A stretch of DNA of 63,432 nucleotides, filler included, from Reclinomonas americana ATCC 50394 (GCA_048213135.1; 5 parts of 3 records of this genome joined end to end with filler, not necessarily neighbours in it); one strand, 5' to 3'. Numbered from the whole stretch's first letter, positions 3,001 to 61,173 are shown. Notes: generated from the sequence alone by a model not told the origin. Program-made: numbers and translations.

Positions 3001-6000
3001 GTGCACGCGAACCGTGTGCTCACAGTGCGATAGCTGCGCGAGATTCACGAGCAGCTGACTGCCAGTCGTCTGGCACACCACCGTGAGCGACTGGTGCTGC
3101 AGCAGGCGTTGGAGGACAAGGAGCATGAAGCCGACGAGCTGAGACATGAGGTGCGCAAAGCGCGCGAGTTTGGCGAGGTGAAGATCAAGATTCTGGAGGA
3201 CTCGGTGGCCAAGCTTGCTAAGCGCGGTGACGCCGAGCGTCGACTGGCCGAGCGAAATGACGAGATGTTTAGGTGTGTGTGTGTGTGTTGTGAGAAAAAG
3301 CCAGACAACTCATGCGTGTGAGTGTCGTGCTCATTGTCGTGTGTCTGTCTATAGGCTTGCACTCTCAGAGGCGCAACACAAGCGCGAGGCTCAGGAGCAA
3401 CGCGTTCGTGCCTCCAAATTGGACGACATGCTCGGGGAGCGGAATCGACGGATCGCAGACCTGGAGACACAGCTCATCCAGCAGTCGGGCACCTCACTGC
3501 CGGTATGTGTGTGTCTCTGAACGTATGGGTTTCCATGTTCGATCTCGCTTATTTGTGGTCATCGTAGCCTGTAATCGTGGACTCGCACGATGGCATCTCG
3601 CAGTCTGGCAAAGGCAGCAAACGCAACGGCTCGACCGCGCCGCAGGTCTTCACCCTTTGTTGTTGTTCTTGTCTCTGTTGCCTTGCACTTTGTGGCTCAT
3701 TGTCGCATACAATCAGCAGCAACATCAGCAGCAGCAGCAGCAGGAGCAACAACAGACGCAAATCATCTCGACGCTGTCGGCGCAAGTGCAGTCGCAGAAG
3801 GAAGAGATTCGACGACTGCGGGAGGAGTTGCAGGAGCGGCCGTTGCCGCCACTACCGCCAGTGTTAACAATGGTGGCACCGGTGGCGGACTCGGGAGCCC
3901 AAATGCGCAGCCTGTCGCTGGAGATGGAGTGCAACTCGTATCGCGAAAAGCTGCGTTTGTACGAAGACGAGGCCGCGCAGACGGCACAGCGCATGGCCAC
4001 CCTGCAGAAGCAAGTGGGGCGGCAAAAGGAGGAGATGCATCGCAAGTACATGGCCGAGATGAGCGAGCACATTGCCGAGATCCACGGTCTGCGCCAGTCG
4101 CTGTCGTCGGCACAGCAGTACAGCGAGCAGGCAAGTCCACCTCACCTTGTGTGCCGATTGATCGTCTCTCACAAAATCAGCCGCAGGTTCAACTGGAGCT
4201 GAATCGAGTGCGCACCGACAAGCTCTGCCTGTCCGATCAGTTGTCGCAGCGGGATCAGTTGGTGCACTCGCTGAAAGAGGAGACTGCACGACTGGCGGCA
4301 CTGGCCGACGAAAGGTTAGCGTTTCGTTGTGTCTGCATCGACTCGTCGCCTCTGGTCGCTCACACGACGACAAAGGTGCCAACGAGCCGACGCTGATGCA
4401 CGGCGCGCGGCAGCCGAGTCCGACAGACTGGCGCACGAAGTCGAAGAGAAGAAAGTGCAGTTGCAGGTGATGGCCGAGAGCCTGCAGTCGCTGGAGAATC
4501 GCAGCACCTTGCGCATGGATCATCACGGCTCGGCGTTGCGTGTCTGCCGTGGTCTCTCTGCGAATCACACATCACCTCACCCTTGACTTACAGCGATGGG
4601 CTGAGTGATGCCGCGAAGGAGCGCGTCTTGGTGCTGACGGCCAAGTTGCAGAGCCTCATCGCCAGCGACTTTGTGCAACAGCGGCGTGTCGCAGAGCTCA
4701 CCAACCGAGTGGCGGAACTGTCGCGCGCCCCGCCGCCGAGTGGCGGTGCCGATTTGCATGCGGTCCAGCTGATCTCGCAGTCGCAGGCGGAGAACGAAGT
4801 GTTGCGCAAGCAAGTCAGCATGTTGAAGGGCGAGGTTCGCAGTCTGCAGGAGCAGGTCGAGGAGACCGAGCGCGAGCGGCAACAGACACGCGAGGCGCTC
4901 GAGAGCTTGCGCACCGATGCCGTGAGGTACTGTGGGAGTGTGACCAGGAGGAGAATGCGTACACGCGAGAAGCTCATCATGTGTCGTACAGGGTGGCCAG
5001 CGAGCGTCGTGCGTGCGAGGAGCGGCTGCGAGCGCAGCGGCAAGAGTTTGCCGAGAGCCTCCAACGGCACCGCTCGGAGCTCAACTCCAAACTGCGCACG
5101 GCCCACGAACGTATGGTGGCCCGCGAGCGAGAAGTACTGCTGTGGGTCGACCAGCACACTGCGCATGCGAGTGACAGCGACGGCAATGGTGCGCATGGTG
5201 GTGATGTGAGTCCCACACGGCGTGCAGGGGGTCGCCAGGGTCGCTCGCACAGTGCAAGCGCCGTACATCGTCGGAGTCGGTCGGCAGATGGTCGTACGGC
5301 TACGTTGGCGAGTGGCGATGTTGGTGGCGGTGACGAAGCACCGGTCGGTGATGCACATGTCAAGCTGTGGACCGCCATTCGCAGCACACGGCAGGTGCCT
5401 GTCGTCGACTGTTGCATGGCACTTATTCCATGGTTGCCGTACTGACCGTGTGCATCTCGCCAGCTGCTGATGGATGTCACAGCGCGGTTGACAGTCTTGT
5501 CAAGGAACGACGATGCTGGTGCACCGGCGCTGGTACGTTGTCGACTTTGGATGAAATAAGTCGGCGCGACGCTGCGTTTGACTCACACACACGCACGTCG
5601 CAGGAGAGTCTCGAGGACCTCAAATCGTACATGCGGTCAATATGTGGCAAGCTCGAGTTGGCACTGATTCAACACACGCTGAGGTGAGATCTCCTTCAAT
5701 CTTTGTTGACATGCAGACACTGGCTAACGTGCTCGGCAGTGAGCGCTTCCTCGAGCCGCGAATCACCGAACTTAATAATGAGTTGACCGAGCGCGATACC
5801 GAGGTGCAAATGTGGCGAGACAGATGTACAGTAGCCGAGCGCAGCACCACCACATGCGAGGTGAGTTTATTCTCACCCCCTTGTTGATTCTTTTTTCTCA
5901 CTCTTCGCCCGTGGCGCAACGCAGGCCGAGTATCGTGCCATGCTGCAGTCGCACACCGATCATGTGGCACTGGAGAATGGACTGTTCCGCGGTCAAATCA

Positions 6001-9000
6001 AGTCGCTCATGGATGAATTGCAGCGCACCAATGAGCAAGCACTGCGTGTCCACGAAGAGCACATTCGGTGCGCGGCAGCCATGTGTTCTGTGCACTGCGG
6101 TGTCATTCGACGCTCACGCTTGCATGTTGCGCACAGACTGACGCACGCCAACACGCTGCTGACGGTGCGCATTCGGGAGTTGGAGATCCATCTCGGCAAG
6201 GTGCAGAGCGAGGCCCTGGAGCACGGGCACCAGGTAAACAGCGACGCATTGCAGCAGGCACGGAGATTCTGGGAGACGGAGCTGGACTCGCTAAAGACCT
6301 ACTTTGAGGAGGAGATTCTCAAGGTGTGTCGCACATGGGCCAGCTTCCGTGAGCGTCGCTCACTCCCTCCATTCCCACAGACGGTGCTGGTGGAGTCGAG
6401 GCAACCGGTTCTGTCATTAACGCGGGAACTGTGGTCGCAAAAGATTGTCGAAAGCAACCTGCTGTTGGAGCTGGAACTGGCGCAGAAGCGACGGGATGCG
6501 GTGACGGTGCAGTTGGAATCGCAGGCCAGGGTGAACCGATCGTTGTTGGATCGCCTGCAGGAGGCCGAGGTGCTGTCGAGCACTTCGCCGACAGCGGCGT
6601 CGGTCACGGGTTCGGATAGCACGGTGTTTGGACAGTCGCTCGCCGCGTCGCTGTCACGCAAGACAGAACAGTTGGTGGCCATGGAGAAGGAGCTGCAGGA
6701 AGAGCGGCTGCTGGTGAGAAGGTTGGAGAGTGATTTGCACATGTTGCAAACGCGCGCCGAGCGAGACCTGCATGCTGCGCGCACGACGGCACAGTTGGAG
6801 ACTTCGGGAAAGCACACAGAGTGGGAGAAGCGTCTCAGTACTGTGGAGGCGGAAAACGAGCGTCTGCACGCGGAGATTCTCAGATTACACGAGGAGCACG
6901 GGCACGAACTCATCGCAGTGCGGAAGCGCCTGAAGGAGGCGTACGAGAAGGTTCGTGCGGCGTGTGTGTGTGTGCGAAGGGCTCGTCGTCCATGCTCACC
7001 GGCATGTGTGCAGGAGGTGCTGGAGCTGGTGGACAAGTCGCGGCACATGAAGGTGGAGCACGACGAGGTGGTGCGGCAGTTGGAGGAGGTCAATGCGGCA
7101 GAGTCGTCGCGTCAGGCCGCATCGCAACAGCGAAAGGCATCATCGACGGCGGCAGCGAGTCCCGACGCCGTCAAGCAGCAGCGTTTGATCCGGCTGCGAG
7201 CCGACGACTTGGTCGCCGAGATTGAGACGCGCGATCGCATTATTGAGGATTTGCAAAAGACGGTGGAACGACTGGCCAGTGTCGACCACGACGAGGAGGG
7301 CGGACGGGGGAGGAGCGCCAGTCCCACTGGATTCATGTCGCTGACAGTGTCATCGCGTGGCAAGCAGCGTCGGTGAGTGAGAGTATGCGAGAGTGCCTGC
7401 GTCGGATGGCGATGCTGACTGCAGCTTCTGCCCCCTGTAGTGTGCATGGTCGCCCGGTGGAGGGTGCTGCGTCAGCGACTGCCGCAGCACCGCCAGCCGG
7501 TGGTGGAACTGGTGCCGCAGGTCCAACAACCGCTGCCGCCGCCCTCTCGCGTCACGTCTCGCAGCTCACTCGTGAGCTCGTGCGTGCCAAGGTTGCGTAC
7601 AACTGAACCAAGCGCACGTCCGATTCTTGATTCCGAATGATTGCTGACCGACGCCGGTGTGGTGTCGCAGACTGAGCGACAAGAGGCCATTTCACGCATG
7701 CGCGTGGCGCTACGAGCCGAGCTGGAAGTGCGTGAGCGCCTCTCGGCATTACGACTGCAATCCATTAGCCGCAGTGGCACGACCGCGGAAGCGCAAAGTG
7801 GTCCTCGGCGGCGCGACGAGTTGGCCGTGCGAAATGCGGAGCTCGAAGCAGAGGTGAACCATCTGCGTGGCATGTTGGCGCGTGCGCAGCTGCAAGTGAC
7901 GCTTGGCGACGACGGGCATGTGGCCTCACAGATGGTTCCGTGCTCTACATGTCTCACCAGTGTTGACTGTTGTATGTGCACTGACGCTTGCTGGTGCCCT
8001 CCAGCGCGCGAATGGCGACACGGCCTCTCAGTCGGTGCTGGATGCGGTGCGTTGTAACTGCGCTGCGCGTTTGAGTTCATGTGTGTCGCGAAGCTCACTG
8101 GCCCTCATAATGATGCAGCACTTTGTGTTGCAACACGGAGCACTTCCGTCGGCCGCACCGGCGCAGACGGGGGCAGGCGTTGTGCGCGACCACAGTGAGG
8201 TGGACACAGTGTTGACTCGCATCGAGCACTCGCTATCGTCGCTGAGCAGCGCACTGGCGATCCGCCAACACGGCGCCGACGATGACGCTGCCTCTGCGGC
8301 GGCGAATGACGATGCGGGACCGGCAGATGAGGTCCGACCGGCCGAGGTGGCTCGCATTCGCAAGTTGCGTTCACGCACATGTTTCATCGCGTGAAGGGAG
8401 GTCGCCTTACCGATTTTTTCATTTGGAGCAGGCTCTTTGATGACTGCATGCAGACATACATTAGCGAGTTGCACCGTCGACTGCGAGTGGCCGCCGACGT
8501 GTCGCAACACGCTGGAATCTCATTACCCAGGTTCCGAACGTCACTACGCGTTTCTGCGCTTTTTTTCTGTTCCTCTGAGCCCTCCTGAACAGCACCGCCA
8601 GCGATCTGGTGCAGGAGCGTCGCGCCGTGTGGGAGGGCATGTTGGAACTCACACAGCGCATGTCATCGCACGCCGGTTCGCTGATCTCCAAGGCACAAGC
8701 GCTTCGCAAGCATCTTCGTCCCGAAGATGCGTCAGCACGCGACGCACTCGCCGACATGTCGGGAGTCGAGTCGATGGCACAACTGTTGCAGCAAGAGGTG
8801 CAGTCTTGCGGTCGGTGCGTGTTTTTTTGTCGTGGCACTCATGCAACGTTGCACTGCAGCTGCAAGACGTGGCCAAGATGCAAGGCTATCAGGTCGGCTT
8901 GTGCAATGTAGACGCGCAATTTGGTGGTGGTGCTGCGTCGGCCGCGGCATCAGATCGGTGAGTGCCTGTGTGTTGTTTGTCGCCTTCTTATTCCAATTGT

Positions 9001-12000
9001 GGGTGACCGGGCCATGCCATGTGCTGCAGCGAGCCGGTGGTGTTGACGTTGAAACAGCAAGTCGTCGACTTGCAGTCGGAGCTGAGTCGCCGCGGTGAGG
9101 AGACTGCACTGGATCAGCTGCGTCAGCGCGTTGAGCGTGAGAGTCTGGAGGAGCGCGTACGCCTTCTCGCACAAGCACAAGAGGCAAGTGTGTGTCTGTC
9201 TCAGAAGCTATGCTGTGCGACCGCTTCCGCCCATTGATTGGTGCGTGCCTCACAGCAACTTCGACAACGCTACGATGCACTGCGTGAGAAGTTGCGCGAC
9301 GAACGGCGCCAGCACAGTGAGAGTCGCAAGCTGGCCGACAAGGTGCAGCGGCAGCTTGTCGAGACGCAGTCGGCAAAGGACGATGCGGAGCGTCGACTCC
9401 AACAAGCACGCACCACCACCACTCGTCGTGAGTCCTCCTCGGCGGCGGCGGCACGCACTGGTGGTGAGTCAGGCGAGTGTGTGTGCGCGCGCGTGTCCAT
9501 GCGGCATGCTGACGCGTGTCTGCAGGCGATGCTGAACGTGACAGACGCTTGCGTGAGGCGGAGGCGCAAGTGGCTGCGCAGAGACAACGCGCGGATCAGG
9601 TGCAGGAGGAGTTGCGATCGGAGGTCGAACGGCTGCGGCACGAGCTGGAGAGTGTGCGGGTGCGTTGTCGACGGCTATTCCCTCCCACGCACATGTTTTC
9701 GATGACGTAGACTAATGTGCGAGTGTGCTTTGCAGGAGCAACACCAGACCAAGTGCGACGAGCTGGCGCAGTGCACGCAAGAGCGCGATTCGGCACGCCG
9801 TCAACTCGGCGAATCGCTGGCTGCACTCACCAGCAAGGCGCCCTCTGTGCCGCCATCGCCGGCGCCAGTGCCCCAGGTCCATGACGATGCGTTGCGGCAT
9901 TGGCGGGAGCGCTGCCGGTTGTTGGAGAGTGATGTGGAGCGAGCGCGGGAGGAGGCAGCGGAGAAGGATGACGAGGTGCAGAAGCTCACCGATCTGTGTG
10001 CTCGAGCCGACTCGGAGATTTCACAAATGCGCGGCGAGATGCGACGGGCTATGGAGGAGGTGGCGTGCTGTGTTTGCGCTCTGCAAGGGAAAAAAACGCC
10101 TTCCTCATTGTCCGTTATGTGTGTGCAGCATGCCTCCATGCTGACGGATTACCGACAGCAACTCGAGGATGCGACCGCCGAGTGCGAGCGTTTGCGGGAA
10201 CAGCAGCATCGACATGGTGGTGAGCGCGGATATGTGCGTCACATTCAAGCACAGCTGGAGCAGCAACAGGAGCGATTCAGACAGCAGCTGGAGGATCAAC
10301 GCCGCTTGTTGGAGGAGCACGCGCAGCCAGTGGTGCACGCAGAACGCGAGCTGTCGCCAAATGGATCGGTGAGGCTGTCAGCGTCGTCGCTCTTTTCACA
10401 CAGTTACCGTGATTGACTGGGCGCTGTGCAGTTGGCCGACGTACAGGAGGAGTTTGCGGCATATCGTAGGGCTCACGATGCCATGGCGGAGATGTACGAA
10501 GCCGAGATCGAACAGCTGCGCGAGCAGATGAACGTGGTGTGTTCGCACAGAAACACGAGCGTGCTGCATCTGTCCTCGAGTCTCACTCCGTTATCAGCTG
10601 CTGCGTGAGCGACGAGCTGCCGGCGCCCCCATTGTGGCTCGTGTGGCCCGCCCAGTGGGACGCAAATTTGCACCCCTGCATTCGCGCAAGCGGCACCCGC
10701 CGCATGCGCACGTCGCTGTCATTCCCGAAGGCGAGGAGTCGTCTTTCCCGTCCATTTCCAGTCTGTCGCCATCGCAACCGTCGTCGTCGTCGTCTAATGC
10801 GTCGGCGGCGGCCATGGTTCCGCCGCTGGCCTTGCCAAGGCACGAATCGGCAGCTACCACGACTGGTTTCGCCTCCGATGTTGCGGACAGCAAGTGGTTG
10901 CAGTTGGTATGTGTGATACGCTGCTTACACACTTTCGTTGCAGTCGGCATACAAGGACTGGATGATTGAGCGGCTAAAGGAGGACGTGACCGAGTTGCGC
11001 AAGCAACTGCGCAAGCTCCAACCAAAGGCAAGCCTTGTGTGCCGAGCGTTTGAGGTTGCGTGTAATGTCGCTTATGTGTGTTGTGCAGCGGAAGAAGGGT
11101 GCAGCGGCTGTCCGCATTGCCGGAGCCAGCGAGGGTGGCGTGCCGGCCTACGCGCCGTTCCAGTGGCGCACCGAGAAGCGCAACCTGCAGATCGAGTTGG
11201 AGATTGCCGCCGACCGACTGCGAGAGAGCGAAAACCGCGTGCTGGAGCACAAGCGGACGATCGACACGCTGAATCGGCGCATCCGTGAGCTGATGCGAGA
11301 CCTCACCGCCGCCAGTCGGTGAGATCTCTCTCTCTTCTCTCTCCACGTGTGCTGGTGAAGAAGGAGCAATGTCTGACCAAACGCTGCAGGGAACGCGAGG
11401 CCGCTGCGGCTGCGAGCTCACGTCAGCAGCAGTTGCGCAAGAGCAAGCGATTGCACCCTCATGTCATGTACAATTGTCTCAACTCATGATGTTCTGTTGG
11501 CAGGCTGGATGACCTCGCCGCACGCACGAAACAGCAACGAGAGGAGGTGCAGCGAAAGAATCGACAACTCAGCGCCATGAAGCACTCGGTGGAGGACATG
11601 GTGAGGATGAAGCATGCAAGAAAGCGTTGTCTTTTTCTCACGCAGTGGTCTCCTGCAGGAGGAGAAGAGTGCATTGCTGCAGCAGAAGCTCATGGTGGCG
11701 GAGGAGCGCAACAAGCGGCTCGAGGGCGACATCCTGCGCAAGGTTACGCCTCGGTGTGCTCGCTCGTGCTGCTGATAGTGCCTGTCGCCCTCATCACTCT
11801 CGTGCAGGATAATTTGATACGCGAACTGCGCGCCCGCGAGGAGCGTGCGCATGGCGATGTGGATGCCGCGCAGCAGCAGGCCCAGAAACTGCGGTGAGCC
11901 GTTTCTATTTACTCCCGGCCTCCCCGTCCTTGCGTCACTCACGTGCACGTGGGTGTTCTTGTTTTTTCCTTTGTAGAGAGGAGGGCGGCAAGCGCGACAA

Positions 12001-13938: not shown

Positions 13939-16900
13939 ATGGTCGCGCGTGGGAGGAGCGCGATGATGGGTGGTTGACTGGCGATTGTTGCGTCTGTGTG
14001 TCACTGCGCTGCCACTGTGTGTTGCTCACGTGTGTGTGTGTGTGTGTTCAACAGTGCCGGAGGATGTTACGTGCTGGCGCTGTGTGGTCAGTGTGTTCGG
14101 ACTCAGGATTGATTGCTGTTTGTTGGTGTGAGCAGACGTGGCGCCACATCTTCTCGTTCTTGGATGTGACTGACTATCGACGCAACTGCTTTGTGTGCTC
14201 GAAGGTGTGGCTGGCTGTCTCTGTCTCTCTCTTTCCACCCGGCTCCTCTCTCATGTAATGATGCAGTGGTGTCGACTCTATCGGGAAAATGTTGGTGGTG
14301 CCGTGTTGCCGCTGGAGACGCGACAGGCGCGAGACTTTTTGCAGAGGTTCCCCGGACTTTGTCAGATCATTGGTGAGACGCACGTGTGGTTTGTTTATTG
14401 TTTGCGTTGTTGTCTCACTGTGGCTGGCAGTCGGTGAGGGCACATCGACTGCCACACTGGCGGTGCTGATTGAGTACTTGAATGCGCCCAAGTGTGTGGT
14501 GGAGAGCCTCGTACTCCCGTCGAATGGTGATGTGCCTTTTGCTTTTTCCCTTCTGCTTCTCTCTTTCTGTCTCTCCGGTGCTGACATACCGGAAAAAGTG
14601 CTGGAGCGAGTCGACATGCTGCGAGTGGTCATTGGCGGCAACGGCAGTGCGCCGAATCTGTGCCGATTGCAGCTGAGTGGACCCAGTTGCGTCTTCGCCT
14701 TGCTTTCCGAGAGTGTGTGTGTTTGTGCGTGAGTGCGCTGACATGAGTGCGTCTCTGAAGTGGCACCGAGCGACATGGTGCGTTTTCCGCGCGACAGGAT
14801 CCGAAGTCTGCGCGGTCTGTCTCTCTCTTTTCTCGCTGTGATTTCTCGGTGCTCACTCTCTCTCTCTCTTTCTCCCTGGCAGTGGTCAGCGGCCCGCCGG
14901 CGCCGTACTTTCTCGAGGCGCCCGCATTTTACGAGCAGCTGTCGCTGGTGGATGCGCACCCCGCGAGTGTGCGAATGCTAAAGGATCACCTGCAGCTCCG
15001 GTCGCTGGAGCTGGTGATTGGTGCGTTTCATCGCGTCAGAATCTCCTCTCTCTCTCTCTTGCCCACTGTCTCTCACCGAATTGAATCGCTCAGGTCGAGG
15101 ACCGGCTGCGCAGGTCATGCTGCTGTCGGAGCTGCGCGAACTGATCGCCACCGACGCCTTTCCGAATCTCGAGATCTTGCTGGGTGAGTGTGCGATCAAC
15201 AAATGCACAATCACCACTTGCCGTCGTCTCTCTCTCCGACAAGAACGTCTGTTGCAGTGCGCGCAAATAGTGCATACGGCTACTCCGCTTCGGAAGACGT
15301 TTCGTTGGACGCCGCACTGGTGGCATTCAGTCAGGTGCTGCCACGGCTTCGGCGCCTCAAGGTTCGCCGCGATGTGCGACACGCTGCTGCTCTTTTTTCC
15401 TTTCTGCGACGCTCAATCGTGCCACAGGTCTTGCAATTGGACGGCGTACTCAGCCTGCCCGTGGTGCAAATGGGTATGGAGAATGGCCTCAGCCGTGGAC
15501 TGGCGGCACTCGGCGCGGCGATCGCGACCGGCAACACCATTCACTCCTTGTCGCTGATGGTGAGTTGCTACAACGGTGTGTGATGGGAATCGACTGTTAA
15601 AAATGAACCTGACTGTCCACCTCGTGCATACAGTGCAACGGACTCACCACACTGGCGTCCTTCTTTGAGGGCATGCACGGACCCCACTGCCCGCTTCGTG
15701 AGCTTGCCCTCTCGCAGGTGCCGTCTGTGAGATAAGAAACGAGAGATGGATCATCGCGTGCTCATCTTGTTGTTGTTGTGCTTTACAGAACACACTGGGT
15801 GACGCGGCTGTCGAGCACCTCGCGAAATATTCCGAGTCGCACATTGGTGGCATCAGGCGTATCGGTCTTGGTTGGAATCGTCTGACCAACGCTTCCGTAC
15901 CGCATCTGGCCACGCTCTTGCGACAAGAGTGGTTGGAGACGTTGGATCTGGAGCGTGCGTACGAGGCTGGGTGGCGCCTGCCTTCTCCTTCCTTGTGTTG
16001 CTAACCTGCGGCGTGCATGCGCAGGAAATCTGTTGCAAGATATCTCTCCACTGGCCGAGGCCATGGCAGTGGCACCACTCGAGTCCTACCTCTGCCGCCT
16101 GGAGTTGGGAGGTAATCTAGTTGGTGGCGACGACGCCGTGCGTCTGGTGGAGGCCGCTCGTCAACGCCCAGCCCTCGGCTATCTAGGTACGTGTTTGTCG
16201 ATCTTCGACACGGCGACAAGACGGCCTTGCCTCACGTGTGTGTGTGGCAGGACTCACTGGCAACTGCATTCCGTTTGACATTGTGCAGCAGCTGGTGGCC
16301 GGTGGTCGGCCAGTAGAGTGTGGCAGTTGAGTCGTTTGGGAGGAGAAGGTGTTCTCTTTTGTGGTTGTTGACATCGGTCCGTGCAGGTCAGCGAGTCTAC
16401 GTCGACTGGGGTGCCATTCGACGTGAAATCGAGCCTCCAGCGCCGCCGACCAAGGTGTTTACATTGTCGGCCACCACAGAGTGGAAGCCGCCGACGGATC
16501 GTGTCGACTGCCCGCCTCCGCCGGATAACTCGGTGTTTCTGAAAAACATTGCAGCTCCCGTGGACTCTGCGGTGTCAGGTGTGTTTCAGTTCAGCATCAA
16601 GACCCTTTCTTTTGCTCTCTCACTCTGTCGATCACCAGGTGGCAAGCCGTCTCTGTCGCCACCATCTGCCATGAGACCACCGCTGCAAATGGCGACAAGC
16701 GCAGGTGGCGCACCGCCACTTGGCCAGCCGCGTTTGCCCCTGACTACGCCTCTGCCGCTGACATTTCCACGCACGACGCCTCTGCACAATTCGATGGCAC
16801 ACACGACACTGACCAATTTGTCGGACATGGTGCAGCAAGGTGCGCCGCCATGCTCAGTCTGCCCACTCGCTCCCGTCTCCCACGCGCCTGTTGTTTGTTG

Positions 16901-17550: not shown

Positions 17551-19916
17551 TCACAAATCGGCGGGTGGAGTGGACGCCACGACAGCACCCTGCTGTCGCG
17601 TGAGAGCGGCCTCGAGTTCCCGAATGCGCGCCAAGTAGGCGCTCTCTCGCTCGGCAAACACACGGGCCTGGTGGTGGCGGGGTGAGGGGAGGAGGGGGAA
17701 ATGGGGAAGGGGAAAGGGGAAAGGGGAAGGGGAAGGGAAGGGGAAGGGAAGGGAAGGGAGGGAGGGAGGGAGGGAGGGAAGGAGGAGGGAAGGAGGGAGG
17801 AGAGGAGAGGAGAGGAGGAGAGGAGGAGGAGGAGGAGGAGTGAGAGAGGAGAGGAGAGAGGAGGCGAGAGGAGACGAGAAGTGGAACGACGGAGAGAGAG
17901 ANNNNNNNNNNNNNNNNNNNNCCTACTCCCTCGTTGGTCGTCCGTTCGGCGAGTCTCAGGAGAGAGAGAGAGAGAGAGAGAGGAGAGGACAAAGCGAACA
18001 ACTCCCCACACCAGACAAGTGACAAACCTCGGGCGACAACTGCGCCAGCCTCTCCTTCTCGGCCGCCTGAGCCTCATCCTCCTCGTCCTCCGGCACTACG
18101 GCCTCCGGGTGCAGCACCTCTGTCGCACGAATATGAGGTCACACACACATACACACTGCGATCTTGCGTTGCCGCAACTGTAGATGTAGTTTCGCACGCG
18201 CGGCTTCTTGGCCACAACCAACAGCTCCGCACCGTACCGATCCCGGCACCGCGGATCGGCGCCAGCAGCAATCATCAGCTTGACGCACTGCATCACAATC
18301 GATGAGTATCCAACGGAAACAAAAAAACAGAGAATAATCGCGAAAGTCACACACCTCCAAGTGACCCGCCTGCACTGCATCAAAGATGGGCGACTGCGAC
18401 AACACCTCTTCTTCGGTTTCTACGTTGGTGGGAATCACGGGGGCCGCCAGACTCGCGCCCGCCTCCAGCAAGCAGCGAATGGTGTCGGCGTGACCGTGGA
18501 AGGCGGCCTCGTGCGTCGGTGTGCGACCGTACTTGTCGACCGCGTTGGCCTCCTTGGACGCGTCGGTGCAGCGCGCCAGGTAGTACGTGCAATAGTCCGT
18601 GTGTCCGCGACTGCGATTTTTGGGGAGAGTGCGTGAGTGACACGAATGAGCGCACCCCGCAAAAGGAGTAGAGCGAGGAGAACCTGGCGGCCTTGTGCAG
18701 TGGCGTTCGACCATAATCGTCGGGCTCGGTGAACGCCATGTCGGGAATGGCGCCGAGAACGCGTTCGGCAATCACCACGTGCCCGCCCTCCGCCACCGCG
18801 TGCATAATGTTCTGCGAGATAGGCAAAGGGATGTGAGGGACGTCACAAGGAACAGGGAGGGGGACGACAGACGGAGAAGGAGTGGGCGACAAGTGAAAGG
18901 GGGCGGAAGAGAGAGCTACAGACGGCTGGAAGTGCAAGAATCGGAGCTCCACCTTTTGCGTCGGCGACGGCAGACCAATCTTCGCACCACGCTCCACCAG
19001 CCGATCAAACAACGCCAAGTTCTGCACGCACACAAGCCGTCAGGATACGACGACAGCACACCACCGTCTCCCACCAATCAACACAACTGCATTGCGCGCC
19101 GCGTAGTGCAGCGGTCGCAATCCAAAGTCATCGCGCAAGTTCGGCTTGGCGCCCGCCTCCAACAAGCGCATGGCGATCTCCGTCAGGTTCTGATGCGCCG
19201 CCTCGACGAGTGCCGTGCGTCCCTCCGCCGGGAAGTGTGTGTTGATTGAAGCGCGCTGGTGAGGCAGTGGGTGAGGAGACGGAGAGATGAGAAGGAGAGA
19301 GAGAGAGAAGAGGAGAAGAGAAGAACTGAGAAGGAGACAGAAGGAGAGGAGCAGAAGAGAGAAGGGAAAGAAGTGGGAAGAGAGTGGGAGAGAAGGGAAG
19401 AAGGGGGAAGAGAAGTTACGAGAAGAGAAGAGAGGTGGAGAGAGAGAAGAAGAAAGGAAGAGAGAGAGAAGGGAAGAAGATAGAAGAGAGAGAAGAAGAA
19501 CAGAGGAGAAGAGAGAAGAAGAACAGAGGAGAAGAGAGAAGAAGAACAGATGAGAAGAGAGGGGAAGGGAAGACACGAGCCAACGCGGAAACGAAGAGAA
19601 GAAAAAGGAGAGATTGAAGAAGAGAAGGAGTGAAAAGGAGTGAGAAGTAAGGAAGAGAGAGAAAAAGGAGTGAGAAAGAGAAACAGAATAGAGAAGAGAG
19701 TGAGAGGAGAGAGAAGAGAGAAGAGTGTAGAAGAGAGGCAAGCAGTGAGATAGGAAGAGTGCGAGCTGAGAACATCGCCATTACCTTCTTCACATCCGCA
19801 AGGAAACGCTCCACAGCACCCAAATCACCACTCGCCACCGCATCAAACAAATCCGGATCCTCTGCGACAACAAAAAAAGAAAATCGTCGGAAAAAATAGC
19901 AATCAGTGCACACACA

Positions 19917-19968
<52 letters not shown>

Positions 19969-20620: not shown

Positions 20621-21235
20621 ATGTCATCTCAGGTGCGGCGTGTTGTGTCCTTGGCGACGAGCCAGCGTGTGCCGTTTGCCGCCATGCGCGCGTTTGGCAC
20701 GCAGGTTTGTGTGTGTTTGTGTATGCGCGCGTGCATGACGTGCCATCTCACGCACGCGCACAACACGCGCAGCCGGCTGCTGGTCACCAGACGGGCAAGT
20801 TTGCGGAGAAGGAGCGTGCGGTGGAGAACCAAGTTGCGAGTGGGTATCTTCTGCACGCACAATTGTGCGCGCTCTGATTCGCTCTCTCTTTTGTGTCTCT
20901 CGCAGTACTTCAAGGAGCTGGAGGAGGCGCTGGTGAAGCGGCTGTCGGAGCATCCCGAGTTTGTTGCGTGACTCTTCAGTGTGTTGCACCAAGAGAGAGA
21001 GAGAGATTGATTTCCTCTGTGTGTGCAGATCAAGAAGACGGCGGCGGCGGGTGCTGAGAAGGCGCCGGCTGCGGCTCCTCAGGGAACCATCAGCAAGTCT
21101 GAGTTCGAGGGTGTGTGTGTGTGTGTCACTTCTCTTACTTGCTGTCTCTTTCTATGCTCACTTGTGCTTGCAGCGTACAAGAAGGAGATGGAGCGCAAGC
21201 TGAAGCAGCTCGAGTCGCAAATCAAGGAGGACTAA
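20621..21235 (+). CDS. ATP5IF1: Mitochondrial ATP synthase inhibitory factor IF1, 5 exons
   Basis: Presequence-like MSSQVRRVVSLATSQRVPFAAMRAF, then GKFAEKERAVENQYFKELEE (IF1 F..RE.A.E..YF motif) and a C-terminal coiled coil. Confidence 0.82.
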
Positions 21236-45188: not shown

Positions 45189-47036
45189 TCACTGCTCAGC
45201 AGCCACGGTCGACGAGGCAGCCGGCAGCGGATCGTCGAGCACCGGCACCAGCTCGAGCGCCACGGTGCGGTTGCAGGTGGCGAGGATGCGACGCCGGCCA
45301 ATGTCAAAGTGTTCGCCGGAGGGGTCGATGACGGTCTGCGAGGTGGGGTGATCAGAATACGGGAAGACAGCAGGATGACGACGACAGGGAGATAGAGACG
45401 AAACTCCACCGGCTTCGCGAATGAGCACGACTCCGGCGCACATATCCCACGACTTGACGCCGTTCTCGTAGTACACTGCTGGCCGGAAAAGAGGGTGGAT
45501 TAGCAGCAGCAGCAGCAGCACGAGAATGCCTTTCTCTCATCACAGACCGTCGCCACGACCGCACGCCACCCAGGCCATGCTGATGGCGCAGCTGCCGAGC
45601 ATGCGAATGGCTGTGGGGGGTGAGAGGGGGAAAGGAGGGTGAGACAAAGGGGGGAAGGGGTGAGGGGCGAGAGAAGAGAAGGATGAAGAAAAGGAAGAGA
45701 CAACATCATGAGAGACATCAAGAAGAGGGATGAGCGACGAGACAAGAGTAAAATAGGAGAACCGAGTGACGAGAGCAGTGAAAAGACTCAAGGGATGAGG
45801 CACGAGGGATGAGACAAGGGGGAAGGGGTGAGGGGGGAGGGGGAAGGGCGAGAGAAGAGAACAGACAAGGAAAGAAAGAGGGACGAGGGATAAGAATGAA
45901 GGGATGAGACAACACGGAAGACGTGAGCCAAGAGTAGAGAGGTAAGCGTTATGACATGCGAGTGAGGTGAGGCAAGGGATGCAGCACGAGAGATGAATCA
46001 AGAGACATGAGAATCAAGTGTCGGAGACATTACACGAAATGAGAGAGATGAGGAACGAATGAGAGATGAGACAAGGAATGCAGCACGACAGAGGAGTCGA
46101 CGAGACAAGGGAAGAATATGAGAACAAAGTGACGAGTGAACAGAGACGTGGGAAGAGAGTCAAGGGTTGTGGCACGAGGGATAAGACAAGAGACAGATGA
46201 GAGCCAAGAGATGTGAGCGACAACGCGGTAGATGACACAAGTGTGCGGCAGACAACAGACTCGAAGAACAGAGCTCACCGCGCACAGGCTTGGAGGCCAC
46301 GCGATCGAGACGCGCCATGTACTCGGCCTTGTAGGCCACGTCACGACTGGCGGGAATGTTGGTGATGATCATGGCATCCTCGGCGCGCGCCGTGGCCGTC
46401 GACGTCGAGATGCGCTCACCGTTGCAAAACGCACCTTCGCCCACAATCGCCGTAAACACCTCATCGCGATACGGATCATAGATCACTGCGGCCACCTCGC
46501 ACGTGAATGCAACGAAAAGACGAGCGCGCGCGAGTGTGGGTGGCACAAGTCGCACCTCCAACAACGGGTTCGCGATTGATGGTGAGGCCAATGGAGACCA
46601 CCGACATGGGCAGAGTGTGGCAAAAGTTGGTGGTGCCATCCAACGGGTCGACGATCCAGCACGGGCCGACCTCGGGGATGCCATTCTGGCCCTCGTCGCC
46701 CGTGCACTCCTCGCCAATGAAGGGAATGTCGGGGAACTCGAGGACAAGTCGCGATCGCACCTGCGCACGCAGTCAGCGTGTGTGCGAGTGTGTGAGAGAG
46801 TGTGTGAGGCGCGTACCAGGTCCTCCACGGCCTTGTCGGTCTCTGTGACAAAGTCGTTGGCGCTCTTCAGTGTGAGGTGCTTCTCTCGACGCACATCGCC
46901 GGCAATCAGTGCGCCGGCCTCCTGTGCAATGTGTGTGTGAGAGAGAGCGTGTTGGGGAAAGAGCGCAATGCACATACACACACGCAACGCGAGCTACTTC
47001 AGCGGCAATGCGCAGACAACGCCCGAGATCTGTCAT
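45189..47036 (-). CDS. IMPA: Inositol monophosphatase (IMPase/SuhB family)
   Basis: DFVTETD, FIGEE, WIVDPLDGTTNF, IRMLGSCA, WDMCAGVVLIREAGG. Confidence 0.95.
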
Positions 47037-47131: not shown

Positions 47132-52026
<4,895 letters not shown>

Positions 52027-54157: not shown

Positions 54158-54213
<56 letters not shown>

Positions 54214-54255
54214 GAGAGAGAGAGGAGAGAGAGAGAGAGACGAAGAGAGAGAGAT

Positions 54256-54287
<32 letters not shown>

Positions 54288-54740
54288 ATCGATCTCTCTC
54301 AACTCCCCATCGCACTGCTCACTTCACACCCTCTCTTCACCCTCTTCCTCTCCTCCTCCTCCTCCTCCTCTCTCTCTCTCACACACACACANNNNNNNNN
54401 NNNNNNNNNNNNNNNNNNNNNNNNNNNNNNNNNNNTTAATTAATTAANNNNNNNNNNNNNNNNNNNNNNNNNNNNNNNNNNNNNNNNNNNNGGGAGGGTG
54501 AAGAGAGGGAGAAGGGAGGGAGAAGGGGAGAGAGAAGAGAGGGAGAAGGCAGGAGAAGGGAGGGAGAAGGGAGGGAGAAGGGAGGGAGAAGGGAGGGAGA
54601 AGGGAGGAAGAAGTGAGAAGGGGTGAGAAGGAGAAGGAACAACGAGGAATCACTGGTAGCACTTGAGGTGAGGCAGGAAGAGACGGAGGGGAGGGAGAGG
54701 GAGGGAGGGGAGACAGAGAAGGCCCTGCATGCACTCACAG

Positions 54741-55242
54741 TGTGCTTGCTGGTGCCCGTGGGTGTGATCAGATCGACACCATAGTCGGTGGGCGGTGCAT
54801 TGCCTTGGTTCACCGGCAGCGTCCAGTTCACCCAGATTTCAGTCTGTCCACCGGTGGCACTGGATGTGTCGAGGCCTTTGCAACACACAGAGAGAGAGTG
54901 TGTGTGTGTGTGAGAGAGAGAGCGCACAGAATGTCCAATGTAAGTTACTCCGATTGCGCAACTGTTCTCGCCGACTGCCTTGATGATCTGGAACTGCTCT
55001 GGCTCGCTGGAGCTGCCAGGTGCAAAGACTACAGACTGACCATTGACGACTGTGTGCGCGTGCGTGTCAGTGTGAGAGAGTGAGCGAGTGAGCGAGTGAG
55101 AGTGCGTCTCACCACTAATGATACACAAGCAGACGAGCAGAGCCACTGGCAGCGATTGTGTGATTGTGTGCTGCTGCTGCCTCCTCCCTCTCCTTCGCCT
55201 TTTGTGGTGAAGGTGGAGCGGGGGAGACGCGGTTGCTCTCAT
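54741..55242 (-). CDS. N-terminal fragment of a secreted/surface protein with an FN3-like domain
   Basis: Hydrophobic SLPVALLVCLCIIS, then TEIWVNWTLPVNQGNAPPTDYGVDL (FN3-like W..P...G..I..Y.V). Start uncertain. Confidence 0.5.
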
Positions 55243-56149: not shown

Positions 56150-56327
56150 ANNNNNNNNNNNNNNNNNNNNNNNNNNNNNNNNNNNNNNNNNNNNTTAATT
56201 AATTAANNNNNNNNNNNNNNNNNNNNNNNNNNNNNNNNNNNNNNNNNNNNTCGTCAGTTCTCTCTTTCCCTCTCACCTCCCTCTCTTCCCCTCACTGTCT
56301 ACTTCTCACACTCACCCTCCCCGACAG

Positions 56328-59300
56328 GCGAGTTGCAACTATTCGAGACGCATGCACGATTCGGCTCAGTGGCGGCGTTTGCCTACAATCGGCGACGACA
56401 GATCATGGCGGTGGCCGAGCGCGGCACCAATCCCAGCATCTATCTGTACTCGTATCCGGAACATGAGTTGCTCGGCAACATTTCAGGTGAGTCGAGTAGT
56501 GGACAAGGGGATGATGAGACTGAAGTGACGGTTGCGTATCACCACATTTGTCAGACCGCTTTCTCGATTGTTTTCTTCTTCCACCTCTCACTGCTGCGAA
56601 TTCACGCAGAGGAGGAGTTTACTTTTCTTTTTCAGCCTCTGCTCTCTGTTTGCTGTGTATCTCCTCTGCAGTTCGTCTCCCCTTTTTTTCCCGCGTGTTT
56701 CACTCGCAGTCGGTTGCCTCTTTCCCGTTCTTTCCTGCTCCCTTTCTTGTGCTACATTCTTGCGCCGCTGTCAGTCGCTCACAGGCTCATTCGAGCACGG
56801 GCTTTCACTCGGCGCGTAGTAGTTTCTCTGCTACATTTTTCGCTGTCCCCCCTTCGCCTTTCATCCTTTTCTCACTCCCCTTTCTCCCTTTCCCTGTTCC
56901 CTTCCCACAGAAATCTGCGAGCTGGAGGTCCAGGCGCTAGACTTTAGCCGCGACGGCACCCGCCTGGCCATTCTCACCGGCGTCCCCGACTTCCGCCTGG
57001 TGGTGTGGGACTTGAACACCAACACACATCTGTGCGAAGCATCCACCGAATCGGCGCCGCCACACATGGTGCGCTTCAATCCTCTCAACGATCGGCAGCT
57101 GGTGACCATCAGCACGAGCTTTGTGCACTTTTGGACGGTGGAGTCGGTGTTGGATAACTTCCAGCTCATCAAGCGGTGCGTGAGGGCGCCCCTTCATCGT
57201 CCCCTCTCCTCTCCCCTCCTTCTGCTCACATTTCCCCGCAGTGAGGCCGACGTGTTCGACTATGGTGGCGGTCGACTGACCTTCCACTCGGCCACATGGA
57301 ATGCACGCAACGAGGTGTACGTGGGATGCGTGGAGGGACAGTTGCTGCTGTTCCCGGCGGACTCGGAGGAGGGCCACGTGGTGGTGGATGCCGACGGACA
57401 CGATCAGGCCGGCATCAGCTCGGTGATGTTGACGTCAAAGCACATTATCACGGCCGGCAAGGACGGCTACTTGCGCTTCTTCGACATTGAGAATCACTCG
57501 CTGGCCAAGACGGTACGCACTTGGGCCGTGTTGTTGGCCTGCTGCACCAGAAATGCTCATCGGATGCGTGCAGGTTCCCGTGTCGGCATCTTCGGGTGGA
57601 AAACTGTCGCGTGCGGTCATCCTCGGCGACTACTCGGGCGTGGTGTGCACCGCCACCGATGGTGCGGTGTACCTGTTCTCGCTGCCGCCGGACTATTCCA
57701 TGGACAGCGGTTTCGATCCGATGTTGTCGTGGGAGGAGGATCCGGTCAAGGTGTGTTTCGTCCCTGACCACTTTCTTTCCTTGGTGCCCTTCGCTGTGAA
57801 TGTCGGAAACTTTGTTTCTCGTCCATTTGGTGCTTGTCTCCTGCATGCCGTGCTTTTGCGCTCGTCTGTGTTGCTTGTTGCCTTTCTCTTCTTCTTCGTT
57901 TCCTTCCGATGTCTCCTTCTCTGTGAATGTCAGGTCATGTCGATCGTGTGATTCTTGTTCATTTATTCTGTCTTGGTGCGCTCGTCATAGTTGCTCGTCA
58001 TCTTCTCTCTTTCCCTCCGTTTCCTGTATGACATCATTGTGTGTTTCCGTTCCGCTGTAGTGCTTGTTTCCCACATCCTGTCCCGGTAAGCTCTTTTATG
58101 TTGCTTTCGTTTTTTCTTTCTTCCTCCCCCCTCCTCCTCTTCTGTTCGTGAACTTGCTTCTTGTTGTTCCTTCCTCCCTCTTCCCTTTCCCCTTTTCCCC
58201 CCTCCTCTTCCTCCTCGTCCCCATTTCTCCTCTTTCCCCTCTTTCCCCTCTTCCCTTCTCCTGTCTTCCCCTCCCTCACTCCCTCTCTCTTCAGTTGCAA
58301 CAATACCACCACGGTGCCGTGCGCGCATGTGCCTGCGTTCCCGGCAAGACGGTGCTGGTCAGTGCCGGTGAAGACGGGTGTGTGTACGGCTACGACTACG
58401 AAGCCGGCGAGCTGGTGTTGCGCCTGTCCATGCGCGCGCACAATTCGGCCACGGGAGCAGCGTCGGCTGCGAGCAAGCAGCGCGATCATCTGACCGCGCT
58501 GGCCGTCTCCGACTCGGCCTCGAATCCCGCCCTTGTTGGTGCGTCTCTCTTGTTTCATGGTCACTTGCGTTGCGTTGTTGCTTACCGTTTTCCGCGCCAG
58601 GTCGCCTGCTGGCTGTGGGCAATCACGGTGGCGTCGTGCGCATTCTCGACATTGAGAACATTCGCGAGCCCGTGCAGCTGCTGCGCGAGACGCTGGCGGA
58701 GGGTTCCTCGCCCATTATTCATGTTTCGTGAGACCATCTGCACGCCGCTGTCTCTTTTTTGGTTGCTCACACTTTCTGACGGCAAACAGGTGTCGTTCGA
58801 CCCGCAAGGCCAGTACCTGTGTGCGCTGACGCTGAGCGGCGTTGTCCAGTTCTGGGAGGCGTCGGCGTCGACTGGTGGCTCGCGCAAGATCTCCCCCGTG
58901 TGTGTCAGCAACTTTGAGCAGCCACTGGCTGGCGCATGCTGGATGGGTGCGCAGCACGGTGCCAAGTTGATGGTGGCCGGCAACACGGGAGAAATCTACC
59001 TGGTGTGTTTCCTCCTACTAGCACGACTCGGTGTGCATTGAGGGATTGCACTGCTCACTCTCGTGTCTCCGCTCAGGCTCGTCCCACGTCCAACTCGGCA
59101 CGCACCGTCAAGCGACAAACTGCACTGCAGTTGCCGTACGGCGACGTCACGGAGACAGCGTGGCGACTCGACTTCCCCGCCGACGCCATTGCGTGCACCG
59201 AGTTGCGCACCTGCTGCGCGTCACCCATTGTCCCACCTCACATGTTGCTCACGTTGCGATCTCAGTGGTTCGTATCACGTGGTGGCGTTGACTGTGGACA

Positions 59301-61173
59301 AGAAACTGCGCGCGTACAAGCTGCCGACGCCGGAGGAGAATGAGGACCCCGACCAGGATCTAAACTCCATCTCTGACGTTTCGTTGCTCATGTCAAGCAC
59401 TAACATTTTTTGATCGTATTTATGACACCGTCCATGCGCACATGTAGATCCCTGTGCACGACAAGCGTGGCTTCTCGCTCGTGCACAGCTCTGCCTACAA
59501 CTACATTGCGTCGGCGGGTTCGGACGGCGCTCTGGCGATTGCCACACTCGCTTTTACCAACGACAGCGAGTGCTTGAGTGTGCCCACTCATGATCCTTTC
59601 TCTGGAGGTTTGTGCTCCCCTCTCCCCGCTTCGGTTCATGGCTCCCATCTCCTCACTGCGGTGTCTATGTTGTCGCACACAGGCATCGCGTGCGCGTGCA
59701 CTGGAGAGGGTGGCAAGTACATTTTCACTGCCGGTCGTGACGGCCTCTTGTGTGGCTTCTCCCTGGATCGCTCGTCCTCGAGTGAGATTCGCGTGCCAGT
59801 GGTGTCGACGGCCACGCACGTGGAGATGGCACCGGCTGTGGAGTATGCCGAGGCCGGTGGCGACGAGGAGGCCATCCCCAACGAGGAGCGTGACCAGGTC
59901 GACCAGTTCCACCGTGACATTCACAATCGCATCCGTGCCATCAAAGTCGCACTCAACAGTCTGCTCGATGAGAACGAGGATGCGCCGGATCTCGAGAAGC
60001 TGGAGCGCGAGGAGTTTTTGGTCGACGAGGAATTCAAGTTGCGTGGAGAGAAATAGAACAGCTGCTGTTTGCGGCGTTGTTCGTTGGCGACTCATTCTTT
60101 GTGCGCGCAGGGAGATTTTGTTGAAGGAGGGCGCCGAAGAGGTGGATCGTGTGCGCGATGAGATTCACTTTAACAATCTCGCCAAGGACTTCCTCGCCGA
60201 CAAGATCAAGAAGGAGTGCTGGGACACGATGGATGCGCACTTTGGTGTGTTGAAGGGTCTCGGAAATGCCGATGAGGTACGCGTGAGTGTGTGTGCGCGC
60301 AAGGCGCCTGCCTGTTCCACATGCTCATCCATCTTCCAGGTGTACAACTTCGCGTTGCCGAAGCAGCCGGAGAGCGAGCTGGCCATGACGCGGCGAGTGA
60401 TCAACCTGCGCAAGGTGGAACTGCTGAACTTTGCCCATCTGAAGGAGCGCAGCATTGTGGAGAACTTGGTCGTCAAGGAGGGCGGTGCCTCAGGTTCGGG
60501 CACCACGGCAGCCGCACCGCCGCCTCCGCCTCCAGTGCATGCGGCAGCTGGCGAGTCGGCGGCCAACAGCGTTGTCGGCGACGAAGACGAGAGTGTCGAG
60601 GGTGAGCTCGGAGTGTGTGTTTGTGTGCGCGCTGCCTTTTGTTCAACATGTGCTCATCCAACTCATGTAGGGTACCGCGAGGAGGACCTGGTGCGTGGCG
60701 AGTTCGACCCGCACGACGAGGCGCACCTGTTGTACTCGCCACTCGAGCTGTACACGCGTGGTCGTCGTGTGACCCAAATCCATCTCCTCAAGTGGAAGAT
60801 TCGGCAGCTGAAGACCTCGTTCAACGAGCGCTTCGCCGCCATGCTCGAGGAGAAGAAGGTGGAGATTGGCAAGATCGAAGAGCGCAACAAGCGCATCCGC
60901 GAAATCAACGAGGAACTGAGGGTTGCGGAGACGCTGTCGGATCCGGCCCTGGAGCCACGTGAGCAGCCGCACCTCATTCTGAAGGTGAGAAACGAGCTGG
61001 CATCGCCCTTTTTTTGTTGTGGAGTGTGCGTTTGTTGCTGACGAGGCCGTGCGCAGGTGACCGACTCGGAGATTCCGTTCCCGCCGTTCGTGTCGCCCGA
61101 GGAGCAGGCGCGTCGCGACGAGCTGAAGCGACAGGAGGAGGAGCGCCTCGCCGCCGAGCGCGGTGACAAGGAG
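56328..61173 (+). CDS. CFAP43: Cilia- and flagella-associated protein 43 (WDR96), partial at both ends
   Basis: PSIYLYSYP, LDFSRDGTRLA...PDFRLVVWD, FNPLNDRQL; C-terminal ENEDAPDLEKLEREEF, NLAKDFLADKIKKECWDTM, LLYSPLEL...TQIHLL. Confidence 0.9.

Follow-up and report, generated by a model that had tools for sequence, protein, structure and literature searches.

A frequent GTTGCG(T) donor class with a displaced exon-side preference among the predicted introns of Reclinomonas americana

What kind of intron begins with GTTGCG, and how might such a beginning be recognized? The question is raised by a stretch of DNA from Reclinomonas americana ATCC 50394 (GCA_048213135.1; five parts of three records joined end to end with filler). 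A reading of this DNA from the sequence alone had listed 28 5' splice sites (donors) of this form. We refer to the whole stretch of 63,432 nucleotides (nt) as the window. Our analysis of the sequence indicates that the GTTGCG(T) introns are genuine short GT-AG introns of the U2 type. They appear as a distinct class, with a displaced exon-side preference and with the same 3' signals as the other introns. It is probable that this lineage recognizes the beginnings of its introns in an unusual manner. We propose, with somewhat better than even confidence, that GTTGCG(T) is a second donor class, recognized through a helix located one base downstream, whose guide would be a diverged U1, a second U1 or another factor.

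Each of the 28 listed sites carries GTTGCG at the coordinate and on the strand that had been assigned to it. Because circularity had to be avoided, introns were predicted with a gene model that never sees the donor sequence beyond GT (the donor-blind model). It is a two-strand Viterbi model that draws only on 3-periodic coding statistics learned from the window, the GT and AG dinucleotides, an intron length prior, the acceptor base and the presence of a branch-like motif. GTTGCG is the commonest donor hexamer among its 171 introns (22 of them), followed by GTGCGT (14) and GTGTGT (11), and it has held this rank since the first donor-blind pass (12 of 105, then 16 of 116). Nineteen of the 28 listed sites are found in this way, and three are added, at 13987, 14686 and 51658.

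The motif itself occurs 74 times in the window on both strands, while 100 shuffled versions contain 51.9 +/- 7.1 copies and none reaches 74. Relative to the background, in which GTTGCG accounts for 74 of 7605 GT sites (0.97%), the 22 donors among 171 introns give a binomial p = 4e-18. The sequence-only reading had named a single degenerate position-weight matrix as the explanation to be tested. A position-independent matrix trained on the same 171 donors expects 1.4 GTTGCG donors, as opposed to the 22 observed (p = 1e-19). Both chance and a single degenerate matrix are thus rejected, and the class stands as distinct. Limiting the comparison to the 114 of 171 introns with the cleanest 3' signals gives 17 GTTGCG donors versus 1.28 expected, and in the donor-blind set T at +3 is associated with G at +6 (odds ratio 4.3, p = 3e-5).

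A second, donor-aware model uses a single donor matrix that can be applied in the canonical register or shifted by one base (the two-register model). It predicts 184 introns, of which 32 have a GTTGCG donor and 57 have donors in the shifted register; these counts serve as description only, since they are circular. The 57 shifted donors comprise GTTGCG (32), GTTTCG (6), GTTGTG (4), GTTCCG, GTTACG and GTTGAG (3 each), and six singletons. The model recovers 27 of the 28 listed sites. The class was described as abundant among roughly 180-200 introns. The models give 171 to 184 introns, and GTTGCG constitutes 13% of them in the donor-blind and 17% in the donor-aware version, or about one in seven.

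The distribution of the longer motif agrees with this picture. The window contains 37 GTTGCGT heptamers on its two strands, and 26 of them serve as donors in the union of the listed sites and the two models. The donor-blind exons contain 13 sense copies of GTTGCG, with T at +7 in only 2, and one of these two (40647) turns into a donor under the donor-aware model; exons thus seem to avoid the full heptamer. Examples of exonic sense copies are those at 685 and 40647.

The position of the cut can be examined where homologous proteins are available. All stop-free combinations of GT or GC donors with AG acceptors located up to 36 nt from the proposed ends were scored with a hidden Markov model (HMM). 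The OLA1 HMM was built from 81 full-length homologs (380-405 amino acids) among the 120 matches listed, and the MFS HMM from the 7 longest of 18 matches. All nine testable GTTGCG sites are confirmed to the codon, four in OLA1, three in the MFS gene, and one each in the XPR1-EXS and CFAP43 genes. For the last two, the support comes from the continuity of Pfam profiles. At 43341, position 84 of the EXS profile falls on residue 119 of 121, and position 89 on residue 2 of the next exon. At 60038, position 62 of the CC_Cfap43 profile falls on residue 116 of 117, and position 67 on residue 3 of the next exon. When the split codon is counted, neither junction allows an additional or an absent residue. 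Homolog searches with the coiled-coil exon and with the XPR1 EXS exon gave no matches, and nothing informative came from a PDB search with the exon upstream of donor 43774; the gene itself is XPR1/SLC53A1-like.

The only serious positional rival is that the introns are of the GC-AG type and start three bases later (...GTT/GCGT..., the slash here and below marking the cut); a related possibility is that they are unspliced artefacts of the gene model. The GC alternative is in frame, and it is the runner-up at all seven HMM-tested GTTGCG sites. However, at each of them its score is lower by 4.4 to 7.5 bits, and at both profile-tested sites it would add a residue where the EXS and CC_Cfap43 profiles continue without a gap. 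In addition, the sites fall in all three phases, and therefore GTT is not a codon; the 26 of 37 heptamers at predicted intron starts also speak against an artefact. The GC-AG reading loses at every tested site, and we regard it as barely credible.

The claim that these are real intron starts is thus upheld for 22 of 171 donor-blind introns and for the 9 of 9 homology-testable sites. All GTTGCG sites other than these nine were placed by coding potential and signals only. The support is weaker for 7592, 34363, 46988, 48409, 49017 and 49480, which are found only with the donor model. The site at 35797 had been described as uncheckable, and it indeed adjoins an N gap. The relatives GTTACG, GTTGAG and GTTTCG, which had been listed beside the main class, show the same behavior, except that one GTTACG coordinate, given as 11742, should read 11743. 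The sites are as follows, with the support for each.

4535..4593, + strand: GTTGCG intron, 59 nt, coiled-coil gene; donor-blind model
7592..7670, + strand: GTTGCG intron, 79 nt; donor-aware only, CTGAC branch, GCAG acceptor
8364..8431, + strand: GTTGCG intron, 68 nt; donor-blind model
11432..11503, + strand: GTTGCG intron, 72 nt; donor-blind model
11743..11807, + strand: GTTACG intron; donor-blind model
13987..14054, + strand: GTTGCG intron, newly added; donor-blind model
14066..14135, + strand: GTTACG intron; donor-blind model
14686..14882, + strand: GTTGCG intron, 197 nt, newly added; donor-blind model
18120..18178, - strand: GTTGCG intron, ankyrin-repeat gene; donor-blind model
20833..20905, + strand: GTTGCG intron, IF1-like gene; donor-blind model
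20963..21028, + strand: GTTGCG intron, IF1-like gene; donor-blind model
22438..22513, + strand: GTTGCG intron, OLA1; HMM best of 5, 149.9 vs 144.1 bits, donor-aware model
22870..22955, + strand: GTTGAG intron after an 11-nt micro-exon, OLA1; HMM best of 3, 149.9 vs 136.6 bits
22975..23197, + strand: GTTGCG intron after a 19-nt micro-exon, OLA1; HMM best of 8, 149.9 vs 143.8 bits
23852..24017, + strand: GTTGCG intron, OLA1; donor-blind model, HMM best of 10, 284.9 vs 280.1 bits
24258..24337, + strand: GTTGCG intron, OLA1; donor-blind model, HMM best of 12, 284.9 vs 280.5 bits
31479..31676, + strand: GTTGCG intron, RPA43-like gene; donor-blind model
34093..34156, + strand: GTTGCG intron, P450 gene; donor-blind model
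34363..34422, + strand: GTTGCG intron, 60 nt, in-frame and stop-free, P450 gene; donor-aware only, CTAAC branch, GTCAG acceptor
34857..34929, + strand: GTTGCG intron, P450 gene; donor-blind model
35464..35530, + strand: GTTGCG intron, P450 gene; donor-blind model
35792..35797, - strand: GTTGCG motif beside an N gap; motif present, sequence downstream is N
36186..36246, - strand: GTTGCG intron, Tectonic-like gene, newly added; donor-aware only
39810..39869, - strand: GTTGCG intron, MFS transporter gene; donor-blind model, HMM best of 15, 375.4 vs 369.7 bits
40587..40647, - strand: GTTGCG intron, MFS gene, newly added; donor-aware, whole gene model rises from 375.4 to 394.3 bits
40905..40967, - strand: GTTGCG intron, MFS gene; donor-blind model, HMM best of 10, 375.4 vs 367.9 bits
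41064..41122, - strand: GTTTCG intron (donor 41122), MFS gene; HMM 383.5 vs 375.4 bits for the donor-blind choice
41336..41417, - strand: GTTGCG intron, MFS gene; donor-blind model, HMM best of 13, 375.4 vs 369.1 bits
43277..43341, - strand: GTTGCG intron, XPR1/SYG1-like gene; donor-blind model, gap-free EXS profile
43708..43774, - strand: GTTGCG intron, XPR1-like gene; donor-blind model
45336..45404, - strand: GTTTCG intron, IMPase gene; donor-blind model
46922..46988, - strand: GTTGCG intron, IMPase gene; donor-aware only, the donor-blind model picked an in-frame GT 9 nt upstream
48409..48483, + strand: GTTGCG intron, P-loop gene of unknown family; donor-aware only
49017..49084, + strand: GTTGCG intron; donor-aware only
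49480..49551, + strand: GTTGCG intron; donor-aware only
51040..51106, + strand: GTTACG intron; donor-aware only
51658..51709, + strand: GTTGCG intron, 52 nt, newly added; donor-blind only, not in the donor-aware model
54876..54962, - strand: possible GTTGCG intron with a weak AAG acceptor, low confidence; donor-aware only
58723..58789, + strand: GTTTCG intron, CFAP43-like gene; donor-blind model
59202..59265, + strand: GTTGCG intron, CFAP43-like gene; donor-blind model
59378..59447, + strand: GTTTCG intron, CFAP43-like gene; donor-blind model
60038..60110, + strand: GTTGCG intron, CFAP43-like gene; donor-blind model, gap-free CC_Cfap43 profile

The practical importance of the shifted register is illustrated by OLA1. 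Its P-loop region is encoded by four successive micro-exons of 22, 38, 11 and 19 nt (22514-22974, + strand), an arrangement confirmed by the HMM junction test. The donor-blind model missed the whole 5' part of the gene with its 11 to 38-nt exons. The two-register model, used without any homolog, rebuilds this entire part with exons of 22, 38, 11 and 19 nt, and its score of 149.9 bits is the same as that of the curated model. Under the same model, the score of the MFS gene rises from 375.4 to 394.3 bits. Gene finders trained on a single donor matrix will mis-annotate genomes with such a class.

Apart from the donor, the GTTGCG introns resemble their neighbors. In the donor-blind set, their median length is 67.5 nt, compared with 72 nt for the other introns; a CAG acceptor is present in 22/22 versus 128/149, and a branch-like motif (CTSAY or TTSAC) in 20/22 versus 123/149, at a median distance from the acceptor of 18.5 and 18 nt, respectively. 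The branch motifs are alike in both classes (CTCAC, CTCAT, CTGAC/T), and the two classes do not differ in the base with which the next exon begins. Throughout the window, most branch-like motifs read CTCAC or CTCAT, the third position holding C rather than the purine of CTRAY; the distance to the CAG acceptor is about 18 nt, and the base before this CAG is usually G. U12-type introns are characterized by a 5' RTATCCTT motif and a TCCTTAAC branch site. With the donor GTTGCGT, with RTATCCTT and TCCTTAAC absent, and with branch motifs as in the other introns, a U12-type assignment is rejected, and these signals point to U2-type GT-AG introns.

The intron phases differ between the two classes in the donor-blind set (5/10/7 for GTTGCG versus 79/45/25 for the others, p = 0.026). 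This difference is one point in favor of reading the class as the relic of a burst of intron gain, in which introner-like arrivals carried their own GTTGCGT end and landed at sites without G at -1. The class indeed has no preference for G at -1, and Micromonas is described as having introner families with family-specific donor sites (Verhelst et al. 2013, PMC3879977). However, the difference in phase is no longer clear in the donor-aware set (p = 0.15), no class-specific interior 6-mer emerged from 40 tests, and only 2 of 496 GTTGCG-GTTGCG intron pairs have a blastn match, both consisting of CT/CA simple repeats. Introner copies in the strict sense are rejected, as the introns share no sequence along their length. 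A burst of intron gain is, in our judgment, quite improbable, although an origin by intron gain could be compatible with any mechanism of recognition.

The exon side of the donor bears on the recognition mechanism. We compared 31 GTTGCG sites (the 28 listed and the three donor-blind additions) with 77 short GTnnG donors of the ordinary kind that the same model predicts. G at -1 is found in 6/31 GTTGCG donors and in 52/77 ordinary donors (p = 6e-6), whereas A at -1 is found in 14/31 and 5/77, respectively (p = 9e-6). The counts at -1 reported for the 28 sites (12 A, 6 G, 5 C and 5 T) are exact, and the depletion of G that had been noted there holds in the larger set. The -1 profile of the GTTGCG donors differs from the ordinary -1 profile (p = 2e-6) and shows no difference from the ordinary -2 profile (p = 0.32). 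On the intron side, T is present at +7 in 24/31 GTTGCG donors, mirroring the T at +6 of ordinary donors, and positions +3 to +7 correspond to the ordinary +2 to +6, the displacement that characterizes a shifted register. When CA/GTTGCGT is aligned on CAG/GTGCGT, one position differs. The GCG core is favored in this register: 32 of the 57 shifted donors in the donor-aware model are GTTGCG, compared with 28/127 of the GTGCG type and 33/127 of the GTGAG type among the canonical donors. A is also found at -1 in 6/7 donors lacking T at +7 and in 8/24 donors having it (p = 0.03), a compensation that is expected from one continuous helix extending from -1 to +7.

The class was initially described as an ordinary donor core plus one T, and so it appears. 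Formally, this description also fits a bulged register, in which pairing would be ordinary at -1 to +2 and at +4 to +7, with the additional U at +3 (or +2) looped out. Such registers have been validated in human cells (Tan et al. 2016, PMC4856993), and the universal U1 folds 6 of 22 sites with G+1 opposite its position 8. However, a bulged U would retain the ordinary G at -1, which is depleted instead (6/31 versus 52/77), while GTGCG donors, with an identical intron-side core, keep it in 12/19 cases; moreover, A is enriched at -1 in its place. For this reason the profile favors a helix shifted by one base over a bulged U, and we consider the bulged register unlikely.

In the proposed shifted arrangement, the recognition helix would lie one base downstream of its place at ordinary donors, and the core would be displaced from (A)G/GTGCGT to (C)A/GTTGCGT. 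The G+1 of the intron would occupy the slot of the usual exonic -1 G; likewise, A at -1 would stand in for the usual A at -2, and TGCGT (+3 to +7) for the bases at +2 to +6. Cleavage would remain at the sole GU, within a single helix spanning -1 to +7. Such a helix would be guided by a U1 whose 5' end has diverged, by a second variant of U1 or by some other factor; if the guide is an RNA, U1 or a second U1 family would be expected to match the GCG core, or (C)AGUUGCGU, by complementarity.

A guide other than the textbook U1 is needed, as the universal U1 5' end barely pairs with the motif in any register. Pairing was calculated with RNAduplex, which allows bulges and loops; the sequence taken for the universal U1 5' end was the one tabulated by Tan et al. 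2016 (Table 2; PMC4856993). The median energies were -8.7 kcal/mol for GTGAG donors, -5.0 kcal/mol for GTGCG donors, -4.6 kcal/mol for all other predicted donors, -2.8 kcal/mol for random GT sites and -1.75 kcal/mol for GTTGCG donors. The commonest donor in the window is thus the least complementary to the standard U1, in any register. Three of the 22 GTTGCG donors pair in the shifted register, 6 in a canonical or bulged one (G+1 opposite position 8), and 13 in neither, so that no register recurs among these 22 donors under RNAduplex. Shifted pairing was not found to be more stable than canonical pairing in this calculation, which used the universal U1. The suggestion that these donors are read by shifted or bulged pairing to the standard U1 is therefore not borne out, given a median below that of random GT sites and the lack of a recurring register. 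A hypothetical guide complementary to the canonical consensus of the window binds the GTTGCG donors with -7.15 kcal/mol, 13 of 22 in the shifted register. The search for small nuclear RNAs in the window gave no Rfam match at gathering scores and none even at E <= 1, the only matches at E <= 1 being sub-threshold, miRNA-like ones on a GA/CT simple-repeat hairpin.

The nature of the guide (a diverged U1, a second U1, or a reader based on protein or U6) is where we infer most. It is possible, though doubtful, that the U1 5' end itself has been rewritten, either as two isoforms that differ at the base facing +2 or +1 or as one diverged U1, with one guide fully complementary to AG/GUGCGU and the other to CA/GUUGCGU. 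If this is true, two guides define two donor classes, and the second guide sits one base off the cleavage register, separating U1 binding from the cut site in about one sixth of the introns. Alternatively, the heptamer could be recognized without U1 pairing, by a protein (U1C, Luc7, Prp8 or a lineage-specific one) or by U6 or U5, with the exon-side bias being secondary. The worse-than-random pairing of the universal U1 5' end agrees with this possibility, as does the unusual invariance of the heptamer compared with the degenerate ordinary class. However, the exact one-base shift of the whole core and the compensation between A at -1 and T at +7 look like a nucleic-acid helix, and recognition without U1 pairing appears improbable to us.

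Several points weigh against the shifted-helix reading. The helix cannot be formed by the standard U1, which pairs GTTGCG donors (-1.75 kcal/mol) below random GT sites (-2.8 kcal/mol), and it requires a guide that is not observed. The hypothetical guide separates only weakly, as random GT sites reach -5.7 compared with -7.15 kcal/mol. The compensation between -1 A and +7 T was picked post hoc and rests on 7 sites. Cleavage sites are placed by homology and coding potential alone, and the evidence comes from 63 kb only. The agreement of the 3' signals is partly built in, since the gene model rewards these signals in both classes alike, and the counts of 32/184 GTTGCG and 57/184 shifted donors are circular, since the model already contains the shifted register.

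A further donor type was noticed among the predicted introns. GTTCTC, which has no G at +5 or +6, is predicted as a donor five times, at 339 (+), 18683 (-), 30811 (-), 45762 (-) and 56257 (+). The exons before these donors end in AAG or CAG in three cases, in TCG in one and in TCA in one. These sites may represent a third and minor type of donor, one that relies on pairing with the exon side.

The window is eukaryotic nuclear DNA of about 57-60% GC outside N runs, with a very high intron density: the gene models place 171-184 introns, whose median length is about 70 nt, across about 30 kb of coding sequence. It encodes a giant coiled-coil protein, a leucine-rich repeat (LRR) protein, an ankyrin-repeat protein, a small IF1-like protein, OLA1, an RPA43-like protein, a P450, a Tectonic-domain protein, an MFS transporter, an XPR1/SYG1-like SPX-EXS protein, an inositol monophosphatase (IMPase), WD40 proteins and a CFAP43-like protein. 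The presence of Tectonic and CFAP43 genes indicates a ciliated organism. The Tectonic-like gene (36003-37848, - strand) encodes a cysteine-containing protein that matches PF07773 (Tectonic domain) twice, weakly (22.0 and 20.4 bits). Its product is probably secreted or membrane-bound, which fits a ciliary transition-zone gene.

The nearest OLA1 relatives, among the matches listed, come from scattered lineages and are only 59-64% identical. OLA1 itself is split: its C-terminal part (homolog residues ~305-392) is located at 26152-26439 on the - strand, while the rest of the gene occupies 22357-24826 on the + strand; the displaced part lies past N runs at 24827-25743 and borders on 26440-26539. 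This looks like a contig misoriented in the scaffold. At 26440-26539, 54392-54491, 56151-56250 and 61227-61326, there are four paired 44-N runs with 12 real bases between the partners, which look like masking and not assembly gaps. At 54150-54391, a GA-rich microsatellite stands opposite a CT-rich one and forms a long hairpin (-104.7 kcal/mol, z = -3.2) that many miRNA-precursor models match below threshold, on either strand. The sequence is of low complexity and gives no evidence of a miRNA.

Several known systems share single features with the GTTGCG class. Like U12-type introns, it is a second intron class with its own rigid 5' motif. For the AG/GTGCGT donors of Mamiellophyceae, the 2008 work of Irimia and Roy is reportedly to be named as well. 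In these green algae, the canonical donor is AG/GTGCGT, and the description, as far as it was available to us, includes no GTTGCG class (Verhelst et al. 2013, PMC3879977). The window resembles them in its ordinary core, (A)G/GTGCGT, and in its CTSAY-type branch motif. However, Mamiellophyceae are intron-poor and use one strict donor, whereas the window belongs to a ciliated organism and is extremely intron-dense. The introners of Micromonas (PMC3879977) likewise form a subset of introns marked by its own donor sequence, but they are similar along their whole length, while GTTGCG introns share only the heptamer. Diplonemids have introns of the G/GTATG type or non-GT-AG introns, with few branch motifs (PMC12621601), a splice-site diversity of another kind than the GTTGCG class; a diplonemid origin of the window was rejected on these grounds.

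The motif GTTGCG or GUUGCG was not found as a donor among the top-ranked literature results, which consisted of primers and unrelated uses; this is no proof that the motif is undescribed. Shifted and bulged 5' splice-site registers are otherwise known as rare exceptions only. If the proposed recognition is correct, such a genome would offer a natural system for studying what sets the cleavage site when U1 binds elsewhere, whether the U1 5' end is able to co-evolve with donors, and how U6 accommodates an additional base beside the catalytic GU.

The closest parallels are found in mammals, where Roca and Krainer are said to have described atypical 5' splice sites in a shifted register in 2009. 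A 'Shifted +1' site, ACA/GUCAAGUAUA, is tabulated as an earlier-published rarity in Tan et al. 2016 (PMC4856993). The same study predicts 68 and 51 human sites for the bulge +2/+3 and bulge +3 registers, respectively, among 201,541 sites, and puts all validated noncanonical registers combined at 1.5% (PMC4856993). The GTTGCG donors resemble the human bulge +2/+3 and +3 sites in having an additional U after GU and before the ordinary core; the human bulge sites, however, retain the exon-side pairing, whereas here the -1 G is depleted. They resemble the mammalian shifted sites in that the helix would be one base downstream of cleavage, with G+1 in the slot of the -1 G and with no G at +5. Unlike the human shifted sites, the GTTGCG class lacks complementarity to the 5' end of the standard U1 in the shifted register, in which only 3/22 donors pair. 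Finally, the human shifted sites are rare and are read by the standard U1, whereas the sites described here account for 13-17% of introns and share a near-invariant heptamer.

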